Shown here piece by piece: positions 2,572-54,340 of a stretch of 64,000 bases of DNA. The stretch spans positions 1,300,861 through 1,364,860 of the forward strand of contig OZ244850.1 in the NCBI GenBank assembly GCA_965220895.1. Reading direction: 5' to 3'. This stretch comes from Gammaproteobacteria bacterium. GTDB lineage: Bacteria; Pseudomonadota; Gammaproteobacteria; UBA4575. How positions within the stretch are numbered: the stretch's first letter is position 1; every line of letters begins with the position of its first letter. A program made the position numbers and the translations under genes. The notes below the pieces were generated by a model. The model was given only the letters and a program-made list of their open reading frames with translations. It did no database searches and was not told the origin of the DNA.

Positions 2572-2659
2572 TTTGCAGGGATTTATCGTTTAAATGGGTA
2601 AGTGTAATGAGTGCATGTTCAGCACACAATGATACGGCAGGCGGATGTGTCCTGCCCGG

Positions 2660-3211
2660 TCACAGTGAGTGCAGGAATATTTTTGCGCAGAACAGTGCCA
2701 GCAGTACGGCCGAGGTTGAAAAGTCAAACATTCCAACCCGTGGAATCATCCTTCGGGCCGGATGCAGGAGAGGTGCCGTGATGGAATGCAGCACCGATAC
2801 AAACGGATTGTTTTGACCATGGAGGTGGGGAGCAAGCCAACTGATTGCAACCAGTGCAATGATCGCAAAGATGTAGAGGTTAAGTGCCAGGTCAATGACC
2901 CCGAATACAGCCGCAAGAAGCAGGGTTCCGGTATCGACGGCTCTCCCAATGAGAAGCCCGCGCAGCGCCAACTCGGCGAACTTGACTGCGACCATCAACA
3001 GCAGGGCAGCTGTGTCCACGCGGCCTGCATTGGGGATCCACTTGTGCAGTGGCCGTAGCGCAGGGCTCGTCAACGTCAGTATGGATTGTGAAAAGGGATT
3101 GTAGAAATCCGCCCGGGTCAATCCCAGCAGCATGCGGATCATGAGTGCGTACACGTACAGGGTAAACAGGACATGAACCAGGAAATCAGCGATGCTGAGC
3201 AAGGCGTTCAT
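2660..3211 (-). CDS. yggT: YggT-family integral membrane protein
   Basis: 183 aa, hydrophobic, with two YGGT-like repeats. Position yggS-proC-yggT matches conserved synteny. Confidence 0.7.
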   Translation of the reverse strand: MNALLSIADFLVHVLFTLYVYALMIRMLLGLTRADFYNPFSQSILTLTSPALRPLHKWIPNAGRVDTAALLLMVAVKFAELALRGLLIGRAVDTGTLLLAAVFGVIDLALNLYIFAIIALVAISWLAPHLHGQNNPFVSVLHSITAPLLHPARRMIPRVGMFDFSTSAVLLALFCAKIFLHSL

Positions 3212-4089
3212 GGTTTATTCGTACCCACACCGCGGGGATTGTTGTCCACGGATGATGAAGTTGACCGGGAAAGCTGCTCGGCTTTTTGTGCAGCGCGGCT
3301 GATCGCGGCACCGAAGATTTCTTTCACACCCTCTTGCTCGAGAATTTCAAGGGCCGCTTCCGTGGTCCCTCCCTTTGAGGTTACGGCCCGGCGCAATGCA
3401 TACGGGTCCTGGTCGCCTTGCTCGACAAGCCTGGCTGCGCCAAGGGCGGTGTGAACAGTCAACTGGTGCGCCTGGTCCGAGCTCAGGCCCAGGGACTGGC
3501 CGGCTTCCAGGATGGCTTCGATCAGAAAGAAAAAATATGCCGGGCCGCTGCCGGACACGGCTGTCACCGCATCCAGCAAGGTTTCCTTTTCCAGCCACAC
3601 CGTAAAGCCCACACTGGCAAGAATGCTCTCTGCCAGTGCCTGTTGTGTCTCGGACACATCCGGTCCGGCAAACAGGCCCGTAGCCCCGCAACGCATCAGA
3701 ACCGGCAGATTTGGCATGCAGCGCACGACCGGGAATGTATCGCTCAGCCAGATACTAATGTCCCGGAGCATCGTGCCTGCGGCAATGGAAACAATCAGGG
3801 GCCGGGTCGATTGGTAATGTGCGGAAATCTGCTCGCAGACAAGGCGAATCACCTGGGGCTTTACCGCAAGTACAACCGCTTGCGCCGATGCCGGGGCGGC
3901 CTTGGCCTGCGCACAGATGCGGCATTGCGGGAAATTTTTCTCCAGCAGGGAACCTGTCGAGGGGTCGGTGTCGACGACTGCAATCTGATCGGGTGGCCAG
4001 CCGCTGTCCAGCAGTCCGCCGATCAGGGCCTGCCCCATGTTTCCGCCTCCGAAGATCACGATTTCCTGTTTTTCTGAAGGCTGATTCAT
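3208..4089 (-). CDS. proC: Pyrroline-5-carboxylate reductase
   Basis: NAD(P)-binding motif IFGGGNMGQALIGGL. Start trimmed to MNQPSEK (ATG at 4087-4089), 1 nt after the yggS stop. The ORF track extends it to 4113. Confidence 0.85.
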   Translation of the reverse strand: MNQPSEKQEIVIFGGGNMGQALIGGLLDSGWPPDQIAVVDTDPSTGSLLEKNFPQCRICAQAKAAPASAQAVVLAVKPQVIRLVCEQISAHYQSTRPLIVSIAAGTMLRDISIWLSDTFPVVRCMPNLPVLMRCGATGLFAGPDVSETQQALAESILASVGFTVWLEKETLLDAVTAVSGSGPAYFFFLIEAILEAGQSLGLSSDQAHQLTVHTALGAARLVEQGDQDPYALRRAVTSKGGTTEAALEILEQEGVKEIFGAAISRAAQKAEQLSRSTSSSVDNNPRGVGTNKP

Positions 4090-4090
4090 T

Positions 4091-4816
4091 TTATTTGGCC
4101 GTTCGTGCACCAAAAATAGCAGTACCTATTCGAACAATGGTTGCACCTTCTGCTACTGCCGCCTCGAGATCGTCACTCATCCCCATCGACAAGGTATCGA
4201 GCCCGAAACCCGACTCGTTCAGTTGTTCCAGCATCTCTCGCAGTTGCGCAAAACGCCAGCGTCGATGAATAGTATCACTAGTTTGCCGCGGGATGGTCAT
4301 CAGGCCGCGTAATTCCAAACGGGGAAGTTTTTGCAAGGCACTTGCGAGGTCCTGTACCTGTTCGCACTGCACTCCGGACTTGGAACGTTCGCGGTCAATG
4401 TTGACCTGCAGACAGACCTGCAGGGGAGGCAGGTGGGCCGGACGCTGTGTACTCAGGCGCTCGGCAACGATCAAGCGTTCAATGCCGTGTACCCAGTCGA
4501 AGTGTGCGGCAATTTGCCGGGTCTTGTTTTTTTGTATGGGGCCGACGAAATGCCAGCAGAGGTTTTCGTTCTCCAGTGCGGTGATCTTTTCCAGGGCTTC
4601 CTGCAGGTAACTTTCACCGAAATCACGCTGTCCGGCACTGGCTGCAGAGACGATGTCCCCGACACTCTTTTTTTTGCTGACTGCCAGCAGACGCACACTG
4701 CCGGGGCTGCGCCGGTACCGGTTCTCCAGGCAGCGGATCGTTTCCTTCACCTGTAGAAGGCGTGTCGCCGATGTCCTCTCAGAAGATGTTGGCTGCATTA
4801 AAGACTGGCCCATCAA
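4091..4816 (-). CDS. yggS: YggS-family PLP-binding (PLP homeostasis) protein
   Basis: 241 aa, ...RLLAVSKKKSVGDIV... alanine-racemase-N-like fold typical of YggS/PLPHP. Start could instead be M7. Confidence 0.8.
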   Translation of the reverse strand: MMGQSLMQPTSSERTSATRLLQVKETIRCLENRYRRSPGSVRLLAVSKKKSVGDIVSAASAGQRDFGESYLQEALEKITALENENLCWHFVGPIQKNKTRQIAAHFDWVHGIERLIVAERLSTQRPAHLPPLQVCLQVNIDRERSKSGVQCEQVQDLASALQKLPRLELRGLMTIPRQTSDTIHRRWRFAQLREMLEQLNESGFGLDTLSMGMSDDLEAAVAEGATIVRIGTAIFGARTAK

Positions 4817-5648
4817 CGCACACCCGCTTCATGGCCACCGTGCGGTTGTTCTCCCGGTAAGGTACGACGCAACCGGCACAGCCCCCGACGGCACATGCCA
4901 TGTATTCTTCCAGGCACACCTGGCAGGGAAGTGCGTGCCGGTGACAGAATTCAGAGACCGCTTCCAGCATCCGGTTCGGCCCGCAGGCGAATACCTGTAC
5001 GCCTTGCTGTGCTGCGTGGTCCAGGTTCAAAAACCAGTGCTCGGCCAGCTCGTGTACGTAGCCTTGGAAACAGCCGGGATATCCCTGCAGGCTGGTGAGC
5101 CTTGATGCGATGCCCCAGTCATCGAGCAACGGCATGGCTGCAATGACATCCTTCGGGACATCCGGCGTCAGTATTTTTGAGGGTCGGGTCGGGAAAGGAA
5201 AGGGAATTTCAGAACCCAGAACGGCCAGTGGATGCAATCCCGGATTTCCCCTGAGTGTTTCTGCCAGGAAAATCATGGGAGGAATCCCCACGCCCCCACC
5301 AAGCAGCAATGGATGGGTGGTATTCTCATGCACCCTGAAGGTGTTCCCAATCGGCCCCAGGCTCTGCAGCATATCCCCGGGGTTGCGTGCTGCCAGCTCA
5401 GCACTTCCCCGCCCTACAATCTTGTACAGGATTTCGACCCAGCCTGCGGCGGGATCACTGCGCATAATGGAAAAAGGCCGGCGCAGGGCTCTTTGGGGGT
5501 CGCACTGCAGGTGCAGGAAGTTACCGGCTTTTGCGTGGCGGGCACACTCGGATACGCTCAGCCTGAGGACAAACTGTTGTGCCGCCAGCGCATCATGACG
5601 GATCACACGGGCGCACTCCTCGAAGATCGGGTTTGGCTCGGTTTCCAT
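4779..5648 (-). CDS. PyrK-like FAD/NAD(P)-binding oxidoreductase with C-terminal 2Fe-2S cluster (dihydroorotate dehydrogenase electron-transfer subunit family)
   Basis: RPFSI flavin-binding motif and LLLGGGVGIPPM dinucleotide loop. C-terminal CAVGGCAGC...VCVDGPVF matches the PyrK Cys4 2Fe-2S signature. Confidence 0.6.
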   Translation of the reverse strand: METEPNPIFEECARVIRHDALAAQQFVLRLSVSECARHAKAGNFLHLQCDPQRALRRPFSIMRSDPAAGWVEILYKIVGRGSAELAARNPGDMLQSLGPIGNTFRVHENTTHPLLLGGGVGIPPMIFLAETLRGNPGLHPLAVLGSEIPFPFPTRPSKILTPDVPKDVIAAMPLLDDWGIASRLTSLQGYPGCFQGYVHELAEHWFLNLDHAAQQGVQVFACGPNRMLEAVSEFCHRHALPCQVCLEEYMACAVGGCAGCVVPYRENNRTVAMKRVCVDGPVFNAANIF

Positions 5649-6959: not shown

Positions 6960-7890
6960 GGTGCTCTCCATGCTCGCCGGTGCTGATCGCGAGCGACAGG
7001 ATGGCCATGCGAACGGCAATGCCGTACTTCACCTGTTGCAGAATCACAGACTGGGGGCCGTCGGCAACTTCCGAACTGATCTCCACGCCGCGGTTGATGG
7101 GACCTGGGTGCATGACGATCGCCTCCGGGCTGGCCAGTGCCAGTCTTTCCGGAGTCAGTCCGTACAGCTGGAAGTACTCGTGCTCACTCGGGATAAATGC
7201 CCCCTGCATGCGCTCTTTTTGCAGTCGCAGCATGATGATGACATCGACATCACGCAATCCTTGCCAGCAATTCTGAAACACCTGTACGCCCAGCTGTTCA
7301 ATATTCGCAGGCAACAGCGTTCGGGGTGCGATCACGCGGATCTCCTGGGTACCAAGGATATTGAGTGCCTCGATCTGGGAACGGGCGACACGTGAATGCA
7401 GGATATCGCCCACGATCGCAACGCGCAGCTTGGAAAAATCCGGGTGGTGTTCACGAATCGTGAAGACATCGAGCAGGGCCTGGGTCGGATGGGCATGACG
7501 CCCGTCACCGGCATTGATGATGCTGACATGGGGGGCTATGTGCTTGGCGATGAAATCCGCCGCCCCACTTTCCGGGTGCCTGACAATAAAGATGTCTGTG
7601 TTCATGGCCTCCAGGCTGAACAGCGTGTCCAGCAGGCTTTCTCCCTTGACGGTAGCCGAGGTGGCAATACTGATATTCAGGACATCGGCAGACAGCCGTT
7701 TGGCAGCAAGCTCAAAAGTCGTACGGGTTCGGGTACTGGGCTCAAAAAAGAGGTTCACTATGGTTTTGCCGCGCAGCAGCGGCACTTTCTTGACCGCCTG
7801 GCCATCCACGCTGGTGAATGACTTGGCAGTATCAAGAATATGGATCAGTGCCTCGCGGTCCAGTCTGCCAATGTCCAGAAAATGTCTCAT
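6949..7890 (-). CDS. pyrB: Aspartate carbamoyltransferase catalytic subunit
   Basis: ATCase/OTCase fold with STRTR carbamoyl-phosphate motif (FEPSTRTR) and HPxQ (HAHPTQ). Start trimmed to MRHFLDIG (313 aa); the ORF track extends it to 8061. Confidence 0.9.
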
Positions 7891-7900
7891 GCAAGAAGGC

Positions 7901-8398
7901 TCAGTCCATGATCTCCAGAACGATCGGCTGCGGGCCGCTGAGCTGCACCTGCTGCCTGGCATCCAGGTTGAGCCGGGTACCAACGACATCCGCCTGGATC
8001 GGCAATTCCCGGCCATTTCTCTCCACGAGGATGGCCAGGCTGACCGATGCAGGGCGGCCATAGTCGAAAATCTCGTTCAGGGCCGCGCGCACCGTGCGCC
8101 CGGTATACAGCACATCGTCGATCAGGATAATGTGCCGGTCCGTTACGTTCAGGGGCAGGTGGGAAGGCTTCACGGTCGGCTGGATTCCCGCACGACTGAA
8201 GTCATCCCGGTAAAAGGTGATGTCGAGCACCCCCAGTTCATCCTTGACTTCAAGCATCGACTGAATCTGCTCCGCGACCCATACCCCGCCAGTGCGGATT
8301 CCCACAAGCAAGGGCTGGGTGATGTCCCGTTCACGCATGAAAACCCCGAGACCCTGCCCCAGCTTGTCGATCAGTTGCCTGGCATCCAGGTCCGTCAT
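7901..8398 (-). CDS. pyrR: Bifunctional pyrimidine operon regulator / uracil phosphoribosyltransferase PyrR
   Basis: 165 aa. PRPP-binding motif [13 protein letters not shown]. Immediately upstream of pyrB. Confidence 0.9.
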
Positions 8399-8844
8399 GG
8401 CGCGACCCTTTTCACGCAGGGATCATCGTGACACGCAAGCCAGGTCTGCAAAATGATGGCCGCCGAGGCCTTGTCGATGTCGGTTTTACGGATTTTTTTG
8501 CGTTGTCCCTGCGCCCGCATGTCCTTGAGCACGGCGTACGCGCGGGCTGAAGAAAATGACTCATCCACGGTTTCAACGGGCAGGCCGTAACGGTCTCGCA
8601 GGGCCTTGCAGAAATTTCGAACACGCTGCTTGATGCGACCATGGTCCTGCGTTTGATGCTCGACCCTGCCCACAACCAGGGCATCAGGATGCCATTGCCC
8701 GATGATCTCATCAATCTTGTCCCAGGGCATCCCTGAACTCGGGACGACCAGTGTCGTCAGGGGGTTTGCAGTCCCGGCGCTTGGCACGCCAATGGCAACC
8801 CCTATCCTGCATTCTCCATAATCAAACCCGATCACGTTGGACAT
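8395..8844 (-). CDS. ruvX: Holliday-junction resolvase-like protein RuvX (YqgF)
   Basis: RNase H-like YqgF family. Starts MSNVIGFDYGECRIGVAIG. 4-nt overlap with pyrR. Confidence 0.85.
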   Translation of the reverse strand: MSNVIGFDYGECRIGVAIGVPSAGTANPLTTLVVPSSGMPWDKIDEIIGQWHPDALVVGRVEHQTQDHGRIKQRVRNFCKALRDRYGLPVETVDESFSSARAYAVLKDMRAQGQRKKIRKTDIDKASAAIILQTWLACHDDPCVKRVAP

Positions 8845-8898
8845 GGGCAGCAATTGGACAGGTAGCCTGGGACTTCGCACAGATTGGCAAGCATGTCC

Positions 8899-9462
8899 TT
8901 AGGCATGTCCGGCCTCGCTTGAAATCAGGTTCAGGTCGATTCCCAGTTTACTGGCGGCACTCTGCCATCGTTTTTCAACCGGCGTGTCAAATACGATCTT
9001 GGCCTGGTACGGGACCGTCAGCCAGGCGTTGTCTTTCAGTTCCTGTTCCAGTTGTCCGGGTCCCCATCCGGCATACCCCAGCGCGACGATCGCATTCTCG
9101 GGCCCCGAGCCCCTGCCGATATCCAGGAGAATGTCCTCCGATGTGGTCAGTTTCAGGTCATCGTCAATCGTGTAGGTGGATGTCCACTTGCGGTCTGAAT
9201 CGTGCAGGACGAATCCCCGGTTGGCATGTACGGGCCCACCCGCATACACCGGACTGTGCACGGACGCGGTCCCCTGATCATCGGCATCCACGTCCAGGTA
9301 GCGGATCAGTTCATCGACACCCAGAGTGATCGGCTGGTTCACGACAATGCCCATCGCACCGTGCTCGTTGTGTTCGCAAATCAGGGTCACCGTATGTGAA
9401 AAATTTGGGTCATGCAGGGCGGGCATCGCCACGAGCAGTTGTTTGGTAAGGCTCTCTGACAT
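8899..9462 (-). CDS. yqgE: YqgE/AlgH-family protein (UPF0301)
   Basis: ...LLVAMPALHDPNFSHTVTLICEHNEHGAMGIVVNQP... is diagnostic of YqgE/AlgH. Sits upstream of ruvX, as in many proteobacteria. Confidence 0.8.
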   Translation of the reverse strand: MSESLTKQLLVAMPALHDPNFSHTVTLICEHNEHGAMGIVVNQPITLGVDELIRYLDVDADDQGTASVHSPVYAGGPVHANRGFVLHDSDRKWTSTYTIDDDLKLTTSEDILLDIGRGSGPENAIVALGYAGWGPGQLEQELKDNAWLTVPYQAKIVFDTPVEKRWQSAASKLGIDLNLISSEAGHA

Positions 9463-9600
9463 GGTTGACCGGGCACGCAAAGGGACGTTTTCAAAAACAT
9501 CCGGACACGGGTAACTGCCAATATACCGCAGTTGCTGCCCATTTTTCAGAAAATGATGGGATATGTGAAGGCCCCAACGCCATTTTTGGCCGATCCCGGT

Positions 9601-10566
9601 TCAATCGGGTTGATGTGCCTGCCCAAGCCTTTCTTCGATTCTGTCAAACAGGATTGCGGCAATATTGAGACCGCACATCTTGTCGAGTTCCCGGATGCCG
9701 GTCGGGCTGGTCACGTTGATTTCCGTCAGGTAGTCACCGATCACGTCGATTCCCACGAAGTCCAGTTGCCGGGCCTCCAGTTCGGGCCGGATTTGTTCAC
9801 AAATCCATCGGTCCCGTTCGGTCAGGGCGGCGGCTTTTGGCGTGCCTCCCTTGGCTAGGTTGGCGCGCAGTTCCCCTGCGGCGGGAACCCGCACCAGGGC
9901 CTGCGGTACGGGCTCCCCGCCAATGAGCAAAATCCGTTTGTCACCTTCGCGGTACTCGGCAATCAGTTTCTGTGCCATCACCGAGCGGGTACCGTGCTGG
10001 GTTGAGGTTTCTAGGATCACGGCCCGGTTCGGGTCATCGTGTCGCACGCGAAAGACCAGGTCGCCTGCCATGCCGTCCAGAGGCTTGACCACGGCCTCCT
10101 TGTGTTCGTCGACGAAATGCTCCAGCGCCTGACGGTTGCGGCTGACCACATAGGGTACGGTGCACTCTGCGAAGCAGGTGGCGAACAACTTCTCATTGGT
10201 ATCCCGCAGGCTGGCGGGATTATTTATCACCAGTACCCCGCTTTGCTGTACGCGCTCCAGCAAAAAGGTCGTATAGATGTACTCCATGTCGAACGGCGGG
10301 TCCTTTCGCATCAGTATCACGTCGAACTCATCCAGTTTCTCGGTCGTTCGCGCCTGCACCTCGGCCCAGTTGACCGGGTCGTCCCTCACCGTGATGCGGG
10401 CCGTGTGTCCCAGGATTTCGCCGTCTTGCAGAAAAATGTCGGACGGTTGCAGATAATGGATGTGCCAGGCCCGGCACTGTGCTTCCAGCAGCATGGCGAA
10501 GGTGCTGTCCTTGTGAATATTGATGCCCTCTACAGGGTCCATGACTACACCGAGTTTAATGGTCAT
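9601..10566 (-). CDS. gshB: Glutathione synthetase (prokaryotic ATP-grasp type)
   Basis: Full-length similarity to GshB with N-terminal substrate domain and ATP-grasp region. Start trimmed to MTIKLGVVMDP. Confidence 0.9.
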   Translation of the reverse strand: MTIKLGVVMDPVEGINIHKDSTFAMLLEAQCRAWHIHYLQPSDIFLQDGEILGHTARITVRDDPVNWAEVQARTTEKLDEFDVILMRKDPPFDMEYIYTTFLLERVQQSGVLVINNPASLRDTNEKLFATCFAECTVPYVVSRNRQALEHFVDEHKEAVVKPLDGMAGDLVFRVRHDDPNRAVILETSTQHGTRSVMAQKLIAEYREGDKRILLIGGEPVPQALVRVPAAGELRANLAKGGTPKAAALTERDRWICEQIRPELEARQLDFVGIDVIGDYLTEINVTSPTGIRELDKMCGLNIAAILFDRIEERLGQAHQPD

Positions 10567-11469: not shown

Positions 11470-12807
11470 TCAGTAGCGGTAGTAATCCGGTTTAAAGGGC
11501 CCGTTCAGATCTACCCGGATGTATTCCGCCTGTTCCGGGGTCAGACGGGTCAGTTTCGCACCGATTTTGTCCAGATGCAGGCGCGCAACTTCCTCGTCGA
11601 GCATCTTGGGCAGCACGTAAACCTTGTTTTCGTACCGGTCAGGATTTTTCCACAGTTCCATTTGTGCGAGCACCTGGTTGGTAAAGGAGTTCGACATCAC
11701 GAAGCTCGGGTGTCCTGTAGCGCAGCCCAGATTCACGAGGCGGCCTTCTGCGAGGAGGAGGATGCGCTTGCCGTCCGGAAAGAGGATGTGATCCACCTGT
11801 GGCTTGATGTTCTCCCACGGGTACTGCCTGAGGCTTGCGACATCGATTTCATTGTCAAAGTGCCCGATGTTGCAAACAATGGCCTGGTCCTTCATGGCTC
11901 GCAGATGATCATGGCTGATGACATGGTAATTACCGGTTGCGGTCACAAAAATGTCTGCACTTGAGACCACTTCCTCCAGGGTGACCACACGGTACCCGGC
12001 CATGGCAGCCTGCAATGCGCAAATGGGATCAATCTCCGTGATGAGGACGTTCGCCCCGAGGCTGCGCAGGGATTGCGCACAGCCCTTGCCCACATCGCCG
12101 AAGCCGAAGACCACCGCGGTTTTTGCCGCGATCATGACATCGGTGGCGCGCTTGATTCCGTCCACCAGGGATTCACGACAGCCGTACAGGTTGTCAAACT
12201 TGGACTTGGTCACGGAATCGTTCACGTTGAATGCCGGGACTTTGAGGTCATTGTTTTTTTCCATTTCCAGCAGGCGGTGAACCCCGGTGGTCGTCTCTTC
12301 GGATAGTCCCTTGACCTGGTCCAGCAGCTCGGGAAAGTTTTCGTGCATGATCTTGGTCAGGTCGCCGCCGTCGTCGAGCAGCAGGTTCGGATGCCAGCTG
12401 TCGGGTCCGTGGATGGTCTGTTCAATGCACCAGACGTAGTCCTCCTCGGTTTCGCCTTTCCAGGCAAACACGGGAATACCACTAGCCGCCATGGCCGCGG
12501 CCGCATGATCCTGGGTGGAGAATATGTTGCAGGAGGACCATCGGACCTGGGCACCCAGTGCCGTCAGGGTTTCGATCAGTACGGCGGTCTGCACCGTCAT
12601 GTGCAGGCAGCCCGCGATGCGCGCACCGGCCAGCGGTTTCTCATCACCGTACTTCTCGCGCAGGGCCATCAGGCCAGGCATCTCGGTTTCGGCAATGGCG
12701 ATCTCCTTGCGCCCCCAGTCTGCCAGGGCGAGGTCCGCCACCTTGAAATCCGCTACCACTTTCTGCGCAGGTTGAATGCTCATGATCTTATCTTGCCGTT
12801 CAGCCAA
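11470..12807 (-). CDS. ahcY: Adenosylhomocysteinase
   Basis: Characteristic SAHH motifs ([12 protein letters not shown]-binding [10 protein letters not shown]). Real start may be the internal MSIQPAQ. Confidence 0.9.
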
Positions 12808-12816
12808 TTTGCGGCA

Positions 12817-13989
12817 TTATACCATTGCGCCCAGTCCAGCCCGTTCCTTGAGTTCGTCCACCCGGTCCGTACGCTCCCAGCGAAAACTGTCCTCGCTGCG
12901 GCCAAAATGCCCGTAGGTGGCCGTGGCCCGGTAGATCGGGTGAAGCAGGTCCAGCATGGTCAGAATTCCATACGGAGACAGGTCAAACATGTCCCGGATG
13001 ATGGCCTCGATCCTGTCATCTGCGATGATCCCCGTGCCGAAGGTATTGATCGAGATGGAAGTCGGTTGCGCCACGCCGATGGCGTACGAGATCTGGATTT
13101 CGCAGCGTTCTGCCAGTTCGGCCGCGACCACGTTCTTGGCAACATAGCGTCCCGCATATGCTGCCGAGCGATCGACTTTTGAGGGGTCCTTGCCTGAGAA
13201 GGCACCGCCGCCATGGCGCGCCATGCCCCCGTAGGTATCGACGATGATCTTGCGTCCGGTCAGCCCGCAATCCCCGACCGGGCCTCCTGTCTCGAACCGG
13301 CCGGTCGGATTGATGTGAATCTTCGTGTCTGCCGTCATCCATTTTTCCGGCAGCACCGGCTTGATGATCAGTTCCCGGACCGCTTCGTGCAGGTCTTCCT
13401 GGCTGACTTCCGGGTCATGCTGGGTGGAGAGCACCACCGCCTCGATGCAACAGGGTATTTCGTCCTCATAGGCAAAGGTGACCTGACTCTTGGCATCCGG
13501 GCGCAACCAGGCCAGTTGTCCGGCTCGCCTGACTGCGGACTGTTGCTGTACCAGGCGGTGCGCATAGGTGATTGGTGCCGGCATGAGTACATCGGTCTCG
13601 TTGCAGGCGTAGCCGAACATCATGCCCTGATCCCCCGCACCCTGATCCTCCCTGCTTTCGCGGTCGACCCCGCGTGCAATGTCGGGCGACTGCTTGCCCA
13701 GCGCATTGATGACAGCACAGGTATGTCCATCAAAACCGATTCTGGAGTGGTCATACCCAATCTCGTTCACAGTCCGTCTCACGAGGGACTCGAGGTCCGT
13801 GTGGGCCGTGGTGGTGATCTCACCGGCCAGTACGACCATGCCGGTTTTCACAAGGGTCTCGCAGGCTACGCGGGCATCGGGATCCTGCTCGAGAAGGGCA
13901 TCGAGCACGGCATCGGAGATCTGGTCTGCCATCTTGTCCGGATGTCCCTCGGATACGGACTCGGAGGTGAAAACGCGTGTCGCAGGCAT
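12817..13989 (-). CDS. metK: S-adenosylmethionine synthetase
   Basis: [26 protein letters not shown] and GGGAFSGKD motifs; 390 aa. Confidence 0.95.
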
Positions 13990-14092
13990 GGGCCTCTTCG
14001 GGTCTGGTATGGCCTGTCAACGGTTAACAGGCGCCTTGAATCGCGCTATTCTACGCAATTCGAGTACATTTAAGAAATGCATTCCTGATTCC

Positions 14093-14650
14093 ATGGCGCG
14101 CACACCTTCCAACATGATGCCCTTGGGTACCCCGGCCCCGGAATTTTGCCTGCCGGATACGGTTTCCGGGAAGGAAGTGTGCCTGTCGGATATGCGTGGC
14201 GAGATTGCGACCGTGGTCATGTTCATATGCAACCACTGCCCCTTTGTAAAGCATATCCAGGATGAACTGGTCCGGCTCGGTCAAGAGTATCCTGCCCGCG
14301 GTGTCTCGCTGGTTGCTGTCAGTTCCAACGATGCCGTCCAGTATCCCGAGGACTCACCGGAAAACATGAAGGCCCTGGCGGTGTCCCTCGGATATACCTT
14401 TCCTTATCTGTATGACGAGACCCAGCAGGCGGCGAGGCTGTACGATGCGGCCTGCACACCCGATTTCTATGTCTTTGATCAGGCACTGGAGTGCGTATAC
14501 CGGGGACAACTGGACGATTCGCGACCGGGCAATGACATCCCTGTCACCGGTGAAAGCCTGCGCCTTGCCCTTGATGCCCTGCTGGCGGGTCAAAGTGTCG
14601 ATCCCGAACAGAAACCCAGTATAGGGTGCAACATCAAGTGGAAGGCATGA
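14093..14650 (+). CDS. Thioredoxin-fold redoxin-family protein (CxxC = CNHC)
   Basis: 185 aa. CNHCPF active-site-like motif in a thioredoxin-like context. Start chosen at ATG 14093; the ORF track's longer 13679 start is antisense to metK. Confidence 0.55.
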   Translation: MARTPSNMMPLGTPAPEFCLPDTVSGKEVCLSDMRGEIATVVMFICNHCPFVKHIQDELVRLGQEYPARGVSLVAVSSNDAVQYPEDSPENMKALAVSLGYTFPYLYDETQQAARLYDAACTPDFYVFDQALECVYRGQLDDSRPGNDIPVTGESLRLALDALLAGQSVDPEQKPSIGCNIKWKA

Positions 14651-14808
14651 CATCTTGCTAGGAATAAGCCAAAAGGGAAGGTTCACCGGCTGAACCAGAG
14701 CAGTGGGAATGGCCGGACCGCCTGTTCTGGATGATGGCGCAGCGACCGACAATCTCTGTCCGAGTCGATGCGGGCTCGATGAAGAGGTCGCTGATCAGAA
14801 GTTTCCGC

Positions 14809-14827
14809 ATCGCATCCGTAATGCGAT
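14809..14827. promoter_or_regulatory. 7-bp perfect inverted repeat ATCGCAT-N5-ATGCGAT immediately upstream of the efflux operon start; candidate operator or 5'-UTR hairpin
   Basis: Seen directly: atcgcat ccgta atgcgat at 14809-14827, 8 nt before the proposed ATG of the outer-membrane factor gene. Confidence 0.3.
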
Positions 14828-14834
14828 AGGCTGC

Positions 14835-16412
14835 ATGGTAATGGCAACTGTTTCAGGAAGATTGACAACGCACCGGCGCTACCCCGCACCGGCGGTGCTG
14901 CTCCCAGTCATTGCCGGATTTCTAATGGCCGCATGTTCACAAAAATCATTCCTGCCAGTCCAGGAACCCGTGCCGCAGTTGCCCGGGGAATTCACCGGGG
15001 AGGCGGTGGCCGAGGCCTACGCGCCGCTGGAGTGGTGGAAAACATTCAACGATCCGGTACTCGACCGGGTCGTTGAAGCCGCACTTGCCTCCAACTTCGA
15101 CCTAGCGGGGGCCGTGGCACGTGTGGAACAGGCCCGGGCCCGGGCACGCATCGCGAATGCAGCCCGGTACCCTGCGCTTCAGCCAGCAGCGGTTGCCGAG
15201 GACACGGATTCACCGACCAATGCCGGGGTGGGCCAGCAGATTGAAGAGGTCGGGTTGAGCCCGGAACTCAAACAGGAGTTTGGCATTTCTGTACCGGACC
15301 GCCTGGCGGTAACCACATACTCCCTGAGTGCAGAATTCTCCTACGAGGCCGACTTCTGGGGCCGCAACCGCAATGATGCACAGGCGGCCCGTGCCAAGTA
15401 CCTGGCTTCCGAGTGGGACCACCGTGCAGCCCGTATCGGGGTTGTTGCGGAAACTGTGCGCACCTACATTGAAGTCGCCTGGCTGCGCCGACAACTTGGA
15501 CTGTCAGACGAGATCGTCGGAATCCTGAAGGAGCGCGAGAAACTCACCACGGCACGCTATCACCGTGGTCTGAATACGGCGCGCGAGCTCTACACAGCGC
15601 GCCTGCAGCTGTGGAATTCGCAGGCTGAACTGCCTGCCGTCAGGGGTCAGCTGGCCGACGCACAGGGACGTCTCTGGGTACTGCTGGGAGGATACCGGTC
15701 GGACCTGGCCGGTATGCTGCCCGATTCCCTGTCGCCGTCGATGACGTACGAGCGTGTTCCGGTGGGTATCCCGGCGGACCTTCTCGCGCAACGCCCCGAT
15801 GTGGGTGCGGCCCGCCAGCACATGGAAGCGGCCCGCTATGCAGTCGGCGCCCGTCGGGCTGAACTTCTGCCGTCTCTGTCTTTGTCCGGTTCCATCGGCC
15901 TGCAGGGTTCGGACACTGATCAGTGGTTTGATGCGGACCAGTGGTTCAAAAACCTGAGCCTGAATCTGGTAGGACCGGTATTTCAGGGCAAGCGCCTGCG
16001 CCACAACGTGACCCTCGCAGAGACCCGGCTGGAAGAAGCGGTTTCGGCTTACAGGCACTCTGTGGTGACTGCGGTCAACGAGGTCGAGGCGGTGCTGGCC
16101 CAGCTGGAAACCAGCCACCATCGCCATGTCCTGTTGAGTTCCTCCGTCGAGGAGGCCCGGGCGGAGGCCGCCTTTCAGGAGCGGCGCTACCGGTCCGGGG
16201 TCGGGGACTATGATGACTTTCTTGCCGCCTTGGAAACCCTCACCAGCATGAGGTCCTCGCTGGTTGCGGCAGAGCGTGATCTGGGCTACATGCGGCTCGC
16301 GCTGCACCGCGCCCTGGGCGGTGTGTGGACGGTTTCTGACCCTGGCGCCGTACAAATTGACGATTCTCCACAGGTTGCAGGCCCGCAAGTTGCAACCTTA
16401 CCCCCTGAGTAA
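14835..16412 (+). CDS. RND efflux system outer-membrane factor lipoprotein (NodT/TolC family)
   Basis: Lipobox ...VIAGFLMAAC-S after a basic n-region. TolC-family coiled/beta architecture. First gene of an OMF-MFP-RND triplet. Start chosen at ATG 14835; 14841 is also possible. Confidence 0.8.
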   Translation: MVMATVSGRLTTHRRYPAPAVLLPVIAGFLMAACSQKSFLPVQEPVPQLPGEFTGEAVAEAYAPLEWWKTFNDPVLDRVVEAALASNFDLAGAVARVEQARARARIANAARYPALQPAAVAEDTDSPTNAGVGQQIEEVGLSPELKQEFGISVPDRLAVTTYSLSAEFSYEADFWGRNRNDAQAARAKYLASEWDHRAARIGVVAETVRTYIEVAWLRRQLGLSDEIVGILKEREKLTTARYHRGLNTARELYTARLQLWNSQAELPAVRGQLADAQGRLWVLLGGYRSDLAGMLPDSLSPSMTYERVPVGIPADLLAQRPDVGAARQHMEAARYAVGARRAELLPSLSLSGSIGLQGSDTDQWFDADQWFKNLSLNLVGPVFQGKRLRHNVTLAETRLEEAVSAYRHSVVTAVNEVEAVLAQLETSHHRHVLLSSSVEEARAEAAFQERRYRSGVGDYDDFLAALETLTSMRSSLVAAERDLGYMRLALHRALGGVWTVSDPGAVQIDDSPQVAGPQVATLPPE

Positions 16413-16418
16413 ATCAGC

Positions 16419-17648
16419 ATGAATAGACTGAAGAACAAACTGAAAGCTTACCTGGTTGCCGCAGGGATCTTGGCCGGCGCGGTGGCGCTGGCCGCCATTC
16501 TGGTGTCACTCGCCCCTGAGCCGGAGCGTCGTGAACAACCGCCCCAGATTCCATTTGTCCAGTCGGCTCGGGTGATGTCCGGGGAGGGGGCCATCCCCGT
16601 ATACGGTGCCGGCACGGTGCGGCCCAGTGCAGAGATCGATGTCACCCCGCAAGTCAGTGGCAGGGTCGACTGGGTGAATCCGAGTTTCCACAGCGGCGGG
16701 CGACTCAAGGCGGGCGATACGATGTTCCGCATTGAACAGGCGGACTACCAGCATCGCCTTCGCGAAGCCATGGCCGACCTTGAAGACCGCAAGGTGGCAC
16801 TTCTCGAGGCCCAGGAACTGGCGGCAGTGGCGCGCAGTGAATACGAGCAGTATTCAGGGCGACAGCTTGAGTCCGGGGCCACGGTAGATCAGGCCAGCCC
16901 CTTGGTTTTGCGCGAGCCCCAGCTGAAGGCAGCTGAAGCGGCACTCAAGCGTGAGGAAGCCAGGGTGGCGGAAGCCAGGCTGGCTTTGTCCAGAACGAAG
17001 GTGAATGCACCCTTTGATGGCTATGTGCGAGAAGAGTCCGTGGACAAGGGACAGTTCCTGTCGGTGGGCAAGTCGGTGGGGCGACTGTTCGCCGCCGATG
17101 CTGTCGAAGTGGTGATCCCTCTTTCCGATGCCAGTACGGCCTTGATTCCCGGGCTGTGGAAACTGCAGGAGGGAAATGGCAAACGGCAGGTGCCTGCGCG
17201 CGTGATTGCCCGGTACGGCGATGAAAGCTTTGCGTGGAACGGCTACGTCGATCGGGCCGAAGCCTCGCTGGACAAGCAGACCCGAACCATTGACGTGGTC
17301 GTGCGGGTTCCGGACCCCTTTTCCGCGGGCGAACAGGTGCAGGGGACGGCGCGTCCTGAGCATGCCCCCCCGCTGTTGATCGGCAAGTTTGTGGAAATAG
17401 AGATCCAGGGCATCACACCCGAAAGCTATTTCCAGGTACCGCGTTCCGCACTGCAGTCGAACAACGAGTTATGGGTGATTCGCGAAAACCAGTCAGTCGG
17501 AATTGTCCCGGTGCAGGTGCTGCAGCGCGGCGACGATGAAGTTTTTGTAACGGGTGCCTTGGAGAAAGGTCTTGCGGTCATCACCGGGGGAATCCAGTTT
17601 GCGACCGAAGGCATGATGGTTCGCAGCGAGACCGGCTTGAAACCATGA
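16419..17648 (+). CDS. RND efflux periplasmic adaptor (membrane fusion protein, HlyD/AcrA family)
   Basis: N-terminal TM anchor, coiled-coil hairpin, lipoyl/beta-barrel domains typical of MFPs. 4-nt overlap with the downstream RND pump. Confidence 0.8.
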   Translation: MNRLKNKLKAYLVAAGILAGAVALAAILVSLAPEPERREQPPQIPFVQSARVMSGEGAIPVYGAGTVRPSAEIDVTPQVSGRVDWVNPSFHSGGRLKAGDTMFRIEQADYQHRLREAMADLEDRKVALLEAQELAAVARSEYEQYSGRQLESGATVDQASPLVLREPQLKAAEAALKREEARVAEARLALSRTKVNAPFDGYVREESVDKGQFLSVGKSVGRLFAADAVEVVIPLSDASTALIPGLWKLQEGNGKRQVPARVIARYGDESFAWNGYVDRAEASLDKQTRTIDVVVRVPDPFSAGEQVQGTARPEHAPPLLIGKFVEIEIQGITPESYFQVPRSALQSNNELWVIRENQSVGIVPVQVLQRGDDEVFVTGALEKGLAVITGGIQFATEGMMVRSETGLKP

Positions 17649-21041: not shown

Positions 21042-22117
21042 ATGCAGGTAACTCAAGCCGAGAGCACTGATACTCCATTGCTGTTCCCATTTCCCGAAGG
21101 CTGGTATTTCGTGGCCAGCCGCCAATTCATTACCAAGAAGAAGTTGATTCAGAAAACTTGGCTGGGTCAGGAAATTGTTGCCTGGTGTGATACGGAAGGG
21201 CGCATATGCGTAGCTGAATCCGTGTGCCCGCATCTGGGTTCGGAACTGGGGCCGGAGGTCGGAGGCAAAGTGCGAAATGGCTGTCTCGTTTGTCCGTTTC
21301 ACGGATTTGAATATGATGCAAGCGGCCAGTGTGTGGCCACCCCCCCTTTGCCCCTGCACCCCGGTCCGTGAAACTTAAGGTGTTCGAGACGCGTGAACTT
21401 CTTAGGCCTTGTGTTCGCCTGGTGGGGAAATCATGGGCAGTCTTCATCATGGAGCCTTCCCGAAGACCCTCCAACCGGCTCCGACTGGAGCGAGTTGGAA
21501 TTCAGGGGCATGCGATTTCCCGGCCACCCTCAGGAAACCACTGAAAACGCGGTGGACCTGGCACACTTGCGTTATGTGCACGGCTACGACAATGTACGCC
21601 GGACCGCATCGGTATTCGTGAATGGCCCACACCTTGAAAGCTGCTTTGATTTCAAGCGAACCCGAAACATCGCCGGCATCCTGAATTTCGTATTTGATGT
21701 CTCCGCCATCACGCATGTCTTCGGGCTGGGTTACTCGTTTGTGCAGATTCATGAACGCACTCTGGGCATGGATGCAGGCTGTGGGTCCTGGCTACGCCCG
21801 TTGACGGGAAACTCATCGACTTGATGCTGGTTGGACAGTTGCGGGAAACGCGCAGGCCGAAGCGCCCGATTATCGGCATGCGCTTCCTTCCCGTGGGCTT
21901 GCGGACAAAAATCTATAACAAGATCATCGCATCGACGCAAAAACGCGATGTCTTGAAGGATGTCGTGATATGGAGTCGAAAACGGTATCGATCCCGTCCG
22001 CAACTATGCCGCGCTGACGGCGAGATTGCACTCTATAGAAGATATTGCGAGCAGTTCTATCCGCAGCACCAGGATTTGCACCCGCAGCAAAGGAACCTGC
22101 GCTCAGTGGAGGTATAG
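21042..22117 (+). pseudogene. Rieske non-heme-iron oxygenase (PAO/Tic55-like or aromatic-ring-hydroxylating alpha subunit), disrupted by an in-frame TGA at 21369-21371 and a frameshift near 21755-21790
   Basis: Rieske 2Fe-2S motif CPHLG...CLVCPFHGFEY in the 21042-21371 segment. After the TGA, the same frame carries the mononuclear-iron motif ENAVDLAHLRYVH (D-x2-H-x4-H). The C-terminal ~100 aa continue in the +2 frame (21755-22117). Total span of about 358 codons fits a single-subunit Rieske oxygenase. Confidence 0.6.
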
Positions 22118-22182
22118 ATTCTTTGCAGACATGGATTCTGTTTTGCTTTAAAGTTTCGGATTCCCGGAAGAGGGCATGAGTC

Positions 22183-24183
22183 ATGCGATTTGCTGAAGAA
22201 ATACTCCTGTTACTGCTGAGCGAAAAGACGGGCTTTTTCATTCCCATCCCGGAGTGGAAAATGTCGTGCGTACTGGCCGGCAGCGTGCTGATCGACCTTT
22301 CCTTTGAAAACCGGATCGATTCGGACCTCGAAACGCTCACCCTGCTCGATTCGACGCCTCTCGGAGATTCTTTGCTGGATTCCACGCTGGAAGAAATCGC
22401 CCAGGAAAAGCAGGTGCATTCTCCCCAGTACTGGGTCGAACGCATCGCCAAGCACTCGGATGAGATCAGCAACATGACGCTTGATCGCCTGGTGAAGAAG
22501 GGCATCCTCAATACCGATGAGGGCGGGTTCTGGTCCCTGTCGGGCAAGGTGGCCCGCTCACGGCGCTACCCGACAGTCGATGGCAAAACCGGCGAAGAAA
22601 TCAAGAGCAGGATCTCGCGGGCACTGCTGGATGACGAGATCCCGGATCCACGCGACTTTGCCATCATCGGCCTGATGAACAGCTGTGACGGCATGCGTGC
22701 CTTGCTGGAACCCGAGGAATACGAACTCGCGGAGAAACGTATCGAACTTTTCAGCAGGATGGACCTGATCGGCCGGACCATCGCATCCGCCGTTCGCAGT
22801 TCCTATCGCCCCCCTGCAAGTATACGTTCCGTACAGCGTCCGCCGCTGCCGACTTTCGGACTGTACGGCATGCTCTCATCCAAGACCTTTCGTTCCGGAA
22901 ACCTGCCGAAGTTCATGGCGGAAAAAGCCAGGGAACTGGGGCCGGTTTTCAGAATCAATGCAGGCGGACGCGACATGGTGGTGTTTGCCAGTGCAGAGTT
23001 GAATCGCTGGGTCGGGCACAAGGGTCGCCTTTATCTTCGCACCCAGGATTATATCGGCGGCTTTCAAAAAGAATGGGGAACCGCGCGGTCGATTGCCAGC
23101 ATGGATGGTGCAGATCATTTTCGCATGCGCAAGGCTGTGCAGGCGGGCAATTCCCGGGCGGTGGTTGAGGATCGGCTGGAAGAAGTACTGGCTATGGGCA
23201 GACGATCGTTTGCAAACTGGGGGGTGGGTAACGTGATCGCCGGGGAGATGGCATCCCAGCGCCTGATCGGTGAACAGATTGCCCAGCTCAGTGTCAGCAT
23301 CGATCCCGGCGACATCCTTGATGCGCTGCTGGCCTTTGAATACCGCGCCTTGCTCGTTCACGTGTTCCGGATCCTGCCCAAGTTCACATTACGTACCCCG
23401 GCCATGAAGCGGGCCCATGCGCGCGTTCTGGACCTGTATGCCCAGATCCATGCGTCGCACACACCCGCGCAGCGGGAGGGCAAACGCCGGGACCTGGTGG
23501 ATGACCTGATGGAGTTGCACCAGGGTGACCCTCAGTTCCTGCCGGAAACCGACCTTGGGTTTGCGTTCATCGCACCGATCATTGCCGGACACTATCTGGG
23601 AAGTGCGATGGCTTTTGCAATTTATGAAATGCTGGCGAATCCGGATTTACATGCCCAGCTCGTGGATGAGGCGGATGCGCTCTTTGATGACGGAGACCCG
23701 GATGCCGAAAAACTCAATCCGTCGACGATCGACGTGGCACGCCGTTTCGTGATGGAGGTGTTACGTCTGCATGTGGTGATTCCCATGCACCTGCGTACCG
23801 CCATGAATGCATTTGTGGTCGAGGGTATGGAAATACCAGCCTACAGTACAATTTTAATTGCCTTTCCCTCGGTTCATTTTGACGAGAAATACTTCAAGGA
23901 CCCGAATACCTTTGATATTGAAAGGTATGCGCCGCCGCGGAACGAGCACAAGCAATCCGCAGGTGTGTACGTACCCTTCGGGGTCGGCACGCACATGTGC
24001 GGGGGAGCCCGCTGGACCGAATTGCAGATGGCCATCAACGTGCTCCTGGTTGCACGTCATCTGGAATTGGAGATGGTACCGGCCGATTACAAGCTCAAGA
24101 TCAATCCGCTGCCCAAGCTCAGTCCCGACAAGAATTTTAAATTCAGAGTGGTGCGACACCGGCATCCGCTTGATCCAGCCTGA
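22183..24183 (+). CDS. Fusion protein: N-terminal GPP34/GOLPH3(Vps74)-like domain (about aa 1-220) plus C-terminal cytochrome P450 domain (about aa 235-666)
   Basis: N-terminus MRFAEEILLLLLSEKTGFF...LAGSVLIDLSFENRI matches the bacterial GPP34-family consensus (LAEELLLLALDDETGK...ALAGAvLaEL). C-terminal half has P450 hallmarks: ELGPVFRINAGGRDMVVFASAELNRWV, ExxR (EVLRLH), PERF-like FDIERY, and heme-thiolate loop FGVGTHMCGG. The I-helix reads IIAGHYLGSAMA and lacks the usual acid-Thr pair. RBS-like agaggg lies 9 nt upstream. Confidence 0.75.
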   Translation: MRFAEEILLLLLSEKTGFFIPIPEWKMSCVLAGSVLIDLSFENRIDSDLETLTLLDSTPLGDSLLDSTLEEIAQEKQVHSPQYWVERIAKHSDEISNMTLDRLVKKGILNTDEGGFWSLSGKVARSRRYPTVDGKTGEEIKSRISRALLDDEIPDPRDFAIIGLMNSCDGMRALLEPEEYELAEKRIELFSRMDLIGRTIASAVRSSYRPPASIRSVQRPPLPTFGLYGMLSSKTFRSGNLPKFMAEKARELGPVFRINAGGRDMVVFASAELNRWVGHKGRLYLRTQDYIGGFQKEWGTARSIASMDGADHFRMRKAVQAGNSRAVVEDRLEEVLAMGRRSFANWGVGNVIAGEMASQRLIGEQIAQLSVSIDPGDILDALLAFEYRALLVHVFRILPKFTLRTPAMKRAHARVLDLYAQIHASHTPAQREGKRRDLVDDLMELHQGDPQFLPETDLGFAFIAPIIAGHYLGSAMAFAIYEMLANPDLHAQLVDEADALFDDGDPDAEKLNPSTIDVARRFVMEVLRLHVVIPMHLRTAMNAFVVEGMEIPAYSTILIAFPSVHFDEKYFKDPNTFDIERYAPPRNEHKQSAGVYVPFGVGTHMCGGARWTELQMAINVLLVARHLELEMVPADYKLKINPLPKLSPDKNFKFRVVRHRHPLDPA

Positions 24184-24478: not shown

Positions 24479-24511
24479 AGGGTCCTGTGGCATGCAGGAC
24501 CTTTTCTATTT
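24479..24511 (+). terminator. Possible rho-independent terminator hairpin
   Basis: ggtcctg-tggcatg-caggacc followed by ttttctattt. Lies 300 nt downstream of the P450 fusion stop and 70 nt upstream of tkt. Confidence 0.3.
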
Positions 24512-54117: not shown

Positions 54118-54340
54118 TAAAGAACCGAGAGCGTAGTACGCGGATACACTCCACGAATACTGTGGTCGCTATAGCCCTTGAACCAGAGGTTCAAGTGGGA
54201 GAACTGAAAAATGCATCAGGCTTCCCATTTTCCGGGACTGCACAACAACATTTTTTACAGCATTGTCCCTGAGTAAAAAAATAGGCTCAAGGTATGTATC
54301 TAGCTACTCACCTGTACCGCAGAGGTATCCGGTTTCAGTA
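54118..54340 (-). ncRNA. ssrS: 6S RNA (SsrS), RNA-polymerase sigma70-holoenzyme regulator
   Basis: Minus-strand sequence contains ...gggaagccu...cacuugaaccucugguucaagggcuauagcg.... This parallels the E. coli 6S 3'-half ...GAGAAGCCUUAAAACUG...CACCUUGAACCAAGGGUUCAAGGGUUACAGC.... It also carries the GGUGAG element and 5'/3'-end complementarity (cggauac / guauccg). It sits immediately downstream of zapA, as in gamma- and beta-proteobacteria. Ends approximate to within about 15 nt. Confidence 0.7.

Follow-up and report, generated by a model that had tools for sequence, protein, structure and literature searches.

A GPP34-P450 fusion gene beside an efflux pump

We analysed 64,000 nucleotides of DNA from a gammaproteobacterium of the UBA4575 lineage (GenBank assembly GCA_965220895.1, contig OZ244850.1, positions 1,300,861 to 1,364,860 of the forward strand; this whole stretch is referred to below as the window), focusing on a gene for a 666-residue protein in which a domain of the GPP34 family is followed by a cytochrome P450 domain. 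The gene lies directly downstream of a gene for a KshA-like Rieske oxygenase, which the initial annotation of this DNA had not recorded, and downstream of three genes for a tripartite efflux pump comprising an outer-membrane efflux protein (OEP), a membrane-fusion protein (MFP) and a resistance-nodulation-division (RND) permease (Table 1). The gene neighbours of the protein and its relatives suggest a role in sterol modification alongside an export pump and not that of a secreted factor manipulating the host.

The fusion is encoded by a single open reading frame (ORF) in which Pfam recognises both GPP34 (PF05719; E = 1.9e-33; 116.6 bits, cut-off 29.1; profile positions 2-199 of 201) and p450 (PF00067; E = 1.4e-37; 130 bits, cut-off 22.8). 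Both domains are present in all of the best 120 homolog clusters (65-96 % identity, 633-690 amino acids) and in about 47 more full-length representatives at 26-51 % identity. The gene is under strong purifying selection, with a ratio of nonsynonymous to synonymous substitution rates (dN/dS) of 0.056 against a 96 %-identical ortholog, compared with 0.058 for the neighbouring transketolase gene. A frameshift or mis-assembly as the source of the fusion is ruled out because the homologs are uniformly full length with both domains and dN/dS is low. The single-chain architecture read by the initial annotation therefore stands, and no frameshift or stop splits the gene, an outcome that it had left open. 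A full-length AlphaFold2 model of the kind it had suggested was computed from an alignment of 51 full-length family members, which is also the basis of the residue and motif counts given below; the fold is confidently predicted (predicted local distance difference test score, pLDDT, 91.9; predicted template modelling score, pTM, 0.88) with a single dip, to 62, at linker residues 211-220. No signal-peptide-like N-terminus was found in the protein, residues 3-11 forming the first helix of the GPP34 fold, and no transmembrane segment, the most hydrophobic 19-mer being the buried I-helix. Together with the intact heme motifs and the low dN/dS, these features predict an intracellular enzyme.

Table 1 Features of the fusion gene, its product and the surrounding locus (window coordinates; aa, amino acid positions)
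Feature	Position	Strand	Evidence and remarks
ahcY	11470-12807	-	
metK	12817-13989	-	
AhpC/TSA-like (peroxiredoxin-like) gene	13679-14650	+	Flanks the cassette
Outer-membrane efflux protein (OEP)	14703-16412	+	PF02321; syntenic in relatives
Membrane-fusion (periplasmic adaptor) protein	16419-17648	+	HlyD_3/HlyD_D23; syntenic in relatives
RND permease, HAE-1 type, 1055 aa	17645-20812	+	PF00873, 525 bits
KshA-like Rieske [2Fe-2S] oxygenase gene, in three frames (21042-21371, 21393-21824, 21821-22117)	21042-22117	+	PF00355 and PF19298 on fragments
GPP34-P450 fusion gene, 666 aa, ATG start, GPP34_L clade 1	22183-24183	+	ORF; both Pfam domains; full-length homologs; dN/dS; AlphaFold2
GPP34/GOLPH3-fold domain, aa 4-205	22192-22797	+	
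Linker with proline-rich hinge, aa 206-235 (...RPPASIRSVQRPPLPTFGLYGML...)	22798-22887	+	pLDDT dip; hinge alignment with CYP51
Cytochrome P450 domain, aa ~236-660	22888-24162	+	PF00067; best PDB matches CYP51
I-helix motif IIAGHYLGS, aa 466-474, Tyr and Leu replacing the acid/Thr pair	23578-23604	+	Alignment to CYP51 AGHHTSS and to family members
ExxR motif EVLR, aa 525-528	23755-23766	+	E525 and R528 invariant across 51 aligned members
Heme Cys-ligand loop FGVGTHMCGG, aa 599-608 (C606)	23977-24006	+	G600 and C606 invariant across 51 aligned members
Terminator-like hairpin between the fusion gene and tkt	24479-24503	+	Weak evidence; 11-bp stem, then T-run

The nearest syntenic relatives of the locus come from the Gammaproteobacteria metagenome-assembled genomes (MAGs) L025 (96 %) and L006 (91 %), in both of which the cassette occupies the same insertion site as in the window, between the AhpC-like gene and tkt. 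Measured against the intact Rieske orthologs of these genomes (345 and 356 amino acids, respectively), the window's Rieske gene carries insertions of 2 nucleotides in a C-run near 21340 and of 1 near 21395-21400, and a deletion of 1 near 21790. Since its substitution pattern still looks constrained (dN/dS = 0.09), either the gene became a pseudogene very recently or the breaks are errors of assembly. L006 has a second, divergently transcribed GPP34-P450 paralog of 704 amino acids (7777-9891) between the Rieske and fusion genes, which is missing from L025 and from the corresponding interval of the window (22118-22182). The cassette in the window is thus a reduced one consisting of the pump, a broken Rieske gene and one fusion gene. 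The window's RND permease is 18 residues shorter than its L025 ortholog (L025 5458-8679; 1055 versus 1073 amino acids), only a non-conserved C-terminal tail having gone.

Downstream of the fusion gene lies a tkt-gap-pgk-pyk-fba series, and the rest of the annotated window is housekeeping in nature, including the SAM-cycle genes metK and ahcY just upstream of the cassette, rpiA, ilvA, pepP, ubiH-like genes and a 6S RNA, with no tRNA genes. The 6S/SsrS RNA (54144-54328, minus strand; Rfam RF00013, 70.4 bits) falls, with rpiA and ilvA, within a stretch of lower G+C content (0.48-0.52, about 48-56 kb). A promoter and terminator scan of the region gave site counts not above shuffle expectation. The genes annotated between about 11.5 kb and 34 kb of the window include no ferredoxin or reductase gene, in agreement with the initial annotation, which had seen none adjacent.

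The fusion belongs to the GPP34_L family of sponge symbionts

The domain architecture, which the initial annotation did not recognise, has been published before. Ferreira et al. 2025 (Microbiome 13:4, PMC11706023) gave the name GPP34_L to a monophyletic group of 656 proteins combining GPP34 with a cytochrome P450, reported only from sponge (and coral) symbionts, occurring in, for example, 65 % of the Gammaproteobacteria genomes from sponges, with expression in Aplysina aerophoba; by their census the fusion is among the most widespread symbiosis-specific gene families of sponge microbiomes. The window protein has the same architecture, N-terminal GPP34 and C-terminal P450, and a matching length (~665-675 amino acids in the family), and is a further member; from its 65-96 % identity to more than 120 two-domain clusters we infer that it belongs to the GPP34_L fusion clade, beyond which there are dozens of divergent clusters. 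The homologs whose existence the initial annotation had thought would count against novelty are therefore abundant, though not characterised. Rare fusions of GPP34 to a Rieske domain and to PotA have also been described, and the family has been proposed to act as a secreted effector that binds host phosphatidylinositol-4-phosphate (PI4P) and blocks phagosome maturation (PMC11706023). That account is bioinformatic only, without biochemistry or structural analysis, and makes no mention of efflux pumps or Rieske neighbours, nor does it include the cassette of efflux, Rieske and methyltransferase genes, the loss of pocket residues or the affinity to CYP51 set out below. In the searchable literature we found neither the cassette nor its mobility, its sterol linkage, its three interchangeable exporter types or the loss of the PI4P pocket.

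An exhaustive search found 413 proteins at E <= 1e-30 among 1.84 billion representatives, and a scan of JGI metagenomes with an alignment of 8 family sequences returned 40 loci. Besides L025 and L006, relatives in species-representative genomes include Gammaproteobacteria MAGs of Ca. Porisulfidus and the APA, RHO and COS sponge bins, and all related loci came from symbiont MAGs or sponge metagenomes. Among the sponge record sets, we take MKWU01 to derive from A. aerophoba. The same sponge is the source of Ga0209021, with LXNJ01 and LXNI01 coming from Petrosia ficiformis and Sarcotragus foetidus, respectively (Brown et al. supplement, PMC10070321). One protein of 872 amino acids (P0125) has two GPP34 domains in tandem ahead of the P450 (GPP34-GPP34-P450), and its I-helix is canonical (GIDTAG). 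The neighbourhoods of standalone P450 relatives (L068 and L072) showed nothing relevant.

The PI4P pocket of GOLPH3 is replaced in the GPP34 domain

The N-terminal domain has the GOLPH3/Vps74 fold, and HMMER (E = 7e-20) and HH-suite (probability 97.4 %) agree on how it aligns with human GOLPH3 at R90, R171 and R174. We take the PI4P pocket of GOLPH3 to consist of W81, R90, R171 and R174 (human numbering). R90 corresponds to Ala32 in the window protein, a position that is Ala in 41 of the 51 members and never Lys or Arg, and R171 corresponds to Asp93, with Asp or Glu in 36 of 51, a reversal of charge. R174 is replaced by Ser96 (Arg in 21/51 members) and W81 by Pro23 or Ile22 (Pro in 29/51). The initial annotation's reading of the domain as a phospholipid- or PI4P-binding module is thus at odds with family-wide replacement of R90, R171 and W81 and with the Ser at R174 in this protein.

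The P450 domain shows affinity to CYP51 and a variable I-helix

Searched against the PDB, the family profile matched Methylococcus CYP51 best (249 bits, over the entire P450 domain), then CYP120 (213 bits) and 7wzl, a 'putative cytochrome P450' (209 bits), with other CYP51s (180-196 bits) and taxadiene 5-alpha-hydroxylase (185 bits) further down. The named P450s in this series act on isoprenoid lipids. CYP51 also came first in a single-sequence search, with 96 bits over only amino acids 189-426 of a 457-residue query, which is the C-terminal half of the P450 domain. The hinge consensus IPxxxGLPxLGN of the family aligns with the extreme N-terminal PPVKPGGLPLLGH of Methylococcus CYP51. CYP51 (Methylococcus, Mycobacterium) is the best match of the P450 domain and has in common with the fusion the Pro-rich N-terminal hinge, an I-helix that starts with AGH and lacks the acid, and genomic linkage to sterol genes; unlike CYP51 the fusion joins GPP34 to the P450. 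In a Foldseek search of the full model against the PDB, CYP3A, BM3, CYP17, CYP90B1 and CYP51 all scored about 1e-16 to 1e-15. Both P450 BM3/CYP102, whose heme domains are among the closer structural matches, and the Methylococcus CYP51-ferredoxin likewise combine a P450 with an auxiliary domain in one polypeptide, but the partner in the present fusion is N-terminal and not a redox domain, so that electrons must come from separate proteins. The fusion protein, its paralog, the Rieske partner and the FAD oxidoreductase described below are all far from the cut-off of any NCBIfam model.

In the I-helix of the window protein (AGHYLG) a Tyr takes the place of the acid and a Leu that of the Thr, so that the protein lacks the acid-alcohol pair (A/G)Gx(D/E)T, as the initial annotation had pointed out. 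Two I-helix types occur among the 51 aligned members. Most subfamilies have a canonical AG[LI][DE]T, and the window clade together with several sister clades has a motif one residue shorter in which a conserved Tyr occupies the 'acid' position (AGHY[T/L]G, ASVYLGD, ASIYLGS). Orthologs at >=65 % identity are divided between AGHYTG, with Thr, in 49 clusters and AGHYLG, with Leu, in 48, the Thr still being present in orthologs at about 70 % identity. No acid is found at that position in CYP51 either, which reads AGHHTS in the PDB match and AGQHTS in the CYP51 of the sponge Nitrospira locus L076.

A conserved and mobile gene cassette

We counted genes within 10 kb of the fusion gene at 50 loci, roughly non-redundant and each 8 kb or longer, using reference-based tblastn. 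An efflux pump was present at 42 of the 50, of the RND type in 37 and of the major facilitator superfamily (MFS) in 5, and lay within 300 bp of the fusion gene in 14. Several of the 8 pump-less loci are on contigs that are broken off and still show an OEP or MFP gene. A Rieske gene was found at 26 of 50 loci with a median gap of 75 bp, a second fusion paralog at 8, a protein of ~460 amino acids resembling FAD-dependent amine oxidases at 7 and a 344-residue methyltransferase of the sterol methyltransferase (SMT) type at 6. Two loci (L077 and L080) contain the full array, in the order OEP, MFP, RND, fusion, SMT, FAD oxidoreductase and Rieske, within ~12 kb, with the Rieske gene on the opposite strand. 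No secretion-system gene was found among the conserved neighbours of the fusion.

The window's RND permease is 72-80 % identical to the cassette RNDs of other phyla and reaches 190-246 bits with its nearest solved structures (MdtB, MexK and AcrB). Comparison of L025 (Gammaproteobacteria) with L004 (Acidobacteriota) gave 67 % identity for the fusion, 74.5 % for the RND permease and 61 % for the Rieske protein. Because the cassette proteins are 61-74.5 % identical across phyla and the pump is so much further from solved RNDs, these sequence comparisons indicate that the whole module moved together between phyla by horizontal transfer.

The exporter itself varies. In a clade with a canonical I-helix (L058-L063 and L071, e.g. 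L058 13167-15029), ~33-37 % identical to the window protein, the neighbouring pump is MFS_1/TRI12-like and not an RND permease, and at two loci (L079 5136-7430 and L081 4685-6967) the HAE-1 pump is replaced by an MMPL/Patched-type RND transporter with a match to Sterol-sensing PF12349. Each of these two MMPL transporters adjoins an outer-membrane beta-barrel gene. Loci of the Ca. Porisulfidus/Chromatiales type (L009, L011, L013, L014, L016, L027 and L050) share a conserved gene set downstream of the fusion, which by eye comprises a TonB-dependent-receptor-like protein (~900-1070 amino acids), a peptidase/TPR protein, a 4Fe-4S ferredoxin-reductase-like protein (~372 amino acids) and a molybdopterin oxidoreductase (763 amino acids).

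Evidence linking the cassette to sterols

The intact Rieske partner has its best PDB match in the 3-ketosteroid 9-alpha-hydroxylase KshA (81 bits, compared with 61 for SxtT or DdmC). Sponge-specific KshA-like clades that were horizontally transferred have been reported by Holert et al. 2018 (PMC5790920). SdmA, a 4-beta-methylsterol monooxygenase, was considered as an ortholog of the Rieske partner and rejected; it is the best NCBIfam model, yet scores 36 bits against a cut-off of 600. The recurrent 344-residue neighbour combines Methyltransf_11 with Sterol_MT_C (PF08498; 56.7 bits, cut-off 21.7) and, like the fusion, is 63-72 % identical across Nitrospira, Gemmatimonadota and Gammaproteobacteria MAGs. 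Viewed from the side of this SMT, a GPP34-P450 gene lies within 10 kb in 5 of 6 contexts, and fusion genes of the window's own clade directly adjoin it in L022 and L028. A pathway for furan or cyclopropane fatty acids, hinted at by neighbours of the COG2907 and CMAS types, was dropped on account of the Sterol_MT_C domain. At one further locus (L078 4413-5846; P0299, 477 amino acids) the SMT call includes an extra KshA_C segment, and a 54-residue KshA_C fragment lies downstream; these pieces look like a decayed or mis-called Rieske gene beside the SMT. Close to them are MMPL fragments and a gene of the FA_hydroxylase family (PF04116).

One clade-2 fusion, in a Nitrospira MAG from a sponge (L075/L076), is part of a sterol-biosynthesis cluster with an ERG4/ERG24 reductase, a true CYP51, two SMTs and an FAD oxidoreductase. 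The same cluster contains a 1131-residue protein (2226-5621) in which squalene epoxidase (SE/FAD_binding_3) is fused to oxidosqualene cyclase (OSC; SQHop_cyclase_N/C). In vitro, SMTs of sponge symbionts have been shown to methylate sterols, and complete sterol pathways are encoded in Chromatiales MAGs associated with sponges (Brown et al. 2023, PMC10070321). We considered whether the cassette loci are the sterol clusters of Brown et al. and rejected this, as the contigs listed there differ. In Methylococcus, BstA, a member of the RND family, has been implicated in the traffic of sterols to the outer membrane (PMC10942540). The cassette and the known bacterial sterol and hopanoid systems (SdmAB, BstABC, HpnN and the sponge-symbiont SMTs) have neighbour classes in common, namely a Rieske protein, an ERG6-type SMT and an RND-family transporter, and in some genomes the cassette is, like bacterial sterol pathways, linked to OSC, CYP51 and ERG24. 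It differs from the SdmAB, BstABC and HpnN systems in that its Rieske protein is not an SdmA ortholog and its usual pump is a tripartite HAE-1 RND system and not HpnN- or BstA-like.

Proposed function and alternative explanations

We propose, with a probability of roughly 0.5, that the window protein is a cytoplasmic, heme-thiolate sterol-tailoring monooxygenase belonging to a horizontally transferred cassette and coupled to export. The substrate, a sterol of the symbiont's own making or one acquired from the sponge host, would reside in the inner membrane and be oxygenated by the CYP51-related P450 domain with O2 and electrons from an unlinked ferredoxin system. Where present, a KshA/SdmA-like Rieske protein, a second GPP34-P450, an ERG6-type SMT and an FAD amine-oxidase-like oxidoreductase would act on the same scaffold. 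The adjoining exporter, a tripartite HAE-1 RND pump here and an RND of the MMPL/sterol-sensing type or an MFS protein elsewhere, would then carry the product to the outer membrane or release it from the cell. GPP34 may position the enzyme at its membrane-bound substrate or at a partner by means other than the PI4P pocket of GOLPH3. Taken separately, the substrate class is probably sterols or closely related polycyclic isoprenoid lipids, and coupling of the P450 to export likewise appears somewhat favoured. The earlier view of a membrane-lipid-directed enzyme is a reasonable reading, but the genomic context indicates sterols instead of the phospholipid or lipid-peroxide substrate that had been suggested.

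A number of observations weigh against the proposal. Neither an SMT, an FAD oxidoreductase, a second paralog nor a sterol-synthesis gene was found in the window, where the Rieske gene is frameshifted; the intact and constrained fusion gene evidently works without these partners in this genome. SMT adjacency is seen at just 6 of the 50 fusion loci, the fusion in the Nitrospira sterol cluster is a paralog from clade 2 that shares only 43 % identity with the window protein, HAE-1 pumps are generic exporters of hydrophobic compounds and no linked redox partner was found. The affinity to CYP51 has limits as well, Foldseek not separating CYP51 from CYP3A or BM3. P450 nomenclature asks for at least 40 % identity for membership of a family, and the window protein falls below this value with 24 % identity over 424 amino acids to the true CYP51 of L076. 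The CYP51 signatures, B'-helix YxxF/LxxPxFGxxVxYD and I-helix (Q/H)HTS, are absent from the window protein; the CYP51 of L076 carries YQFTVPIFGRGVAYDAS in its B'-helix and FAGQHTSA, where the window protein has ...DYIGGFQKEWGTARSIASMDG... and AGHYLGS. With too little identity and without the signature motifs, the window protein is, by its sequence, not a CYP51. A genuine CYP51 furthermore coexists with a fusion gene in the one cluster of L076, and the fusion is therefore not the 14-demethylase.

The part assigned to GPP34 is the more tentative one. The domain sits where eukaryotic microsomal P450s carry their membrane anchor, and by this topological analogy it may serve as a membrane or partner adaptor for the P450, a role that we put forward with some reserve. 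GOLPH3 and Vps74 are membrane adaptors for enzymes. Their precedent and the anchor-like position support such a role, as do the tandem variant P0125 and the fusion of GPP34 to three membrane-proximal enzymes (PMC11706023). It is weakened because the pocket is lost and the domain is net acidic (27 Lys/Arg against 37 Asp/Glu); going by its residues, the domain falls outside the functional class of GOLPH3/Vps74, from which it also differs in being bacterial and covalently joined to its enzyme.

Among other explanations, generic defence against xenobiotics or host toxins would have the P450 and the Rieske enzyme oxidise secondary metabolites of the sponge (terpenoids, brominated alkaloids) for expulsion by a multidrug-type pump, with sterols not being the specific substrate. 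The pumps fit this, being related to AcrB, MdtB and MexK or, in another clade, to MFS proteins of the TRI12/drug type; linkage to a pump (84 %) is far above linkage to the SMT (12 %), the cassette spreads by horizontal transfer among co-resident symbionts as resistance modules do, and in the window it amounts to just a pump, a broken Rieske gene and a P450. We nevertheless regard detoxification as unlikely, in that it would not lead one to expect independent sterol-specific neighbours (Sterol_MT_C, the OSC/CYP51/ERG24 cluster and the sterol-sensing-type MMPL transporter) or two oxygenases that are both closest to steroid-acting families, and the very high conservation across phyla suggests a single defined substrate. 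The secreted eukaryote-like effector of Ferreira et al. 2025, in which GPP34 binds host PI4P on phagosomes to block their maturation and the P450 is accessory, draws on the GOLPH3/Vps74 fold of the N-terminal domain, on reports of the family only from sponge (and coral) symbionts with expression in situ (PMC11706023) and on our finding of related loci exclusively in symbiont MAGs or sponge metagenomes. It appears very improbable to us given that substitutions throughout the family affect three of the four PI4P-pocket residues and reverse the charge at R171, that the protein shows no signal-peptide-like N-terminus and its conserved neighbours include no secretion-system gene, and that it is a heme enzyme needing bacterial redox partners and tightly, probably operonically, linked to Rieske, methyltransferase and efflux-pump genes; the fusions of GPP34 to a Rieske domain and an ABC ATPase (PMC11706023) are also a better fit for an intracellular adaptor.

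Spelled out, the chemistry favoured by the initial annotation would be that of an atypical P450 working independently of redox partners, a peroxygenase or hydroperoxide isomerase like CYP74 or CYP152, on phospholipids or lipid peroxides delivered by GPP34. It can point to the Tyr and Leu in place of the acid/Thr pair, to the absence of an adjacent redox partner and to the AhpC/TSA peroxiredoxin-like gene that flanks the cassette. The step from the missing pair to peroxide or rearrangement chemistry is weak because orthologs at ~70 % identity retain the Thr and CYP51 also lacks the acid. Thr is present in half of the orthologs and most other subfamilies, sister clades among them, are canonical, the protein resembles CYP152 only marginally (27 bits, cut-off 600), the lipid-headgroup pocket has been lost and the neighbours indicate sterols rather than acyl lipids. 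CYP51, the nearest family, is an ordinary O2/NAD(P)H monooxygenase, and unlinked redox partners are normal for bacterial P450s. Of the explanations considered we hold this one to be the least probable.

Implications

Taken in its broadest form, the proposal would be that a sterol remodelling and export module, made up of the fusion, an ERG6-type SMT, a KshA-like Rieske protein, an FAD oxidoreductase and an exporter, is shared horizontally by symbionts of more than a dozen phyla and modifies host sterols or their own, that GPP34 replaces the membrane anchor of the P450 and that the PI4P-effector model is wrong; we offer this as speculation that is rather less likely to hold as a whole. The genomic context offers a testable biochemical model of a sterol oxygenase with an SMT, a steroid-type Rieske protein and an exporter, instead of speculative host manipulation, and the cassette is a defined gene set for heterologous expression. 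If true, the proposal would bear on bacterial sterol handling and traffic and on the role of the GOLPH3 fold before its use at the eukaryotic Golgi. It would also bear on which organisms make or remodel the unusual sterols of demosponges and on the reading of biomarkers of the 24-isopropylcholestane type, in that bacteria would contribute directly to unconventional demosponge sterols and hence to 'sponge' sterane biomarkers.

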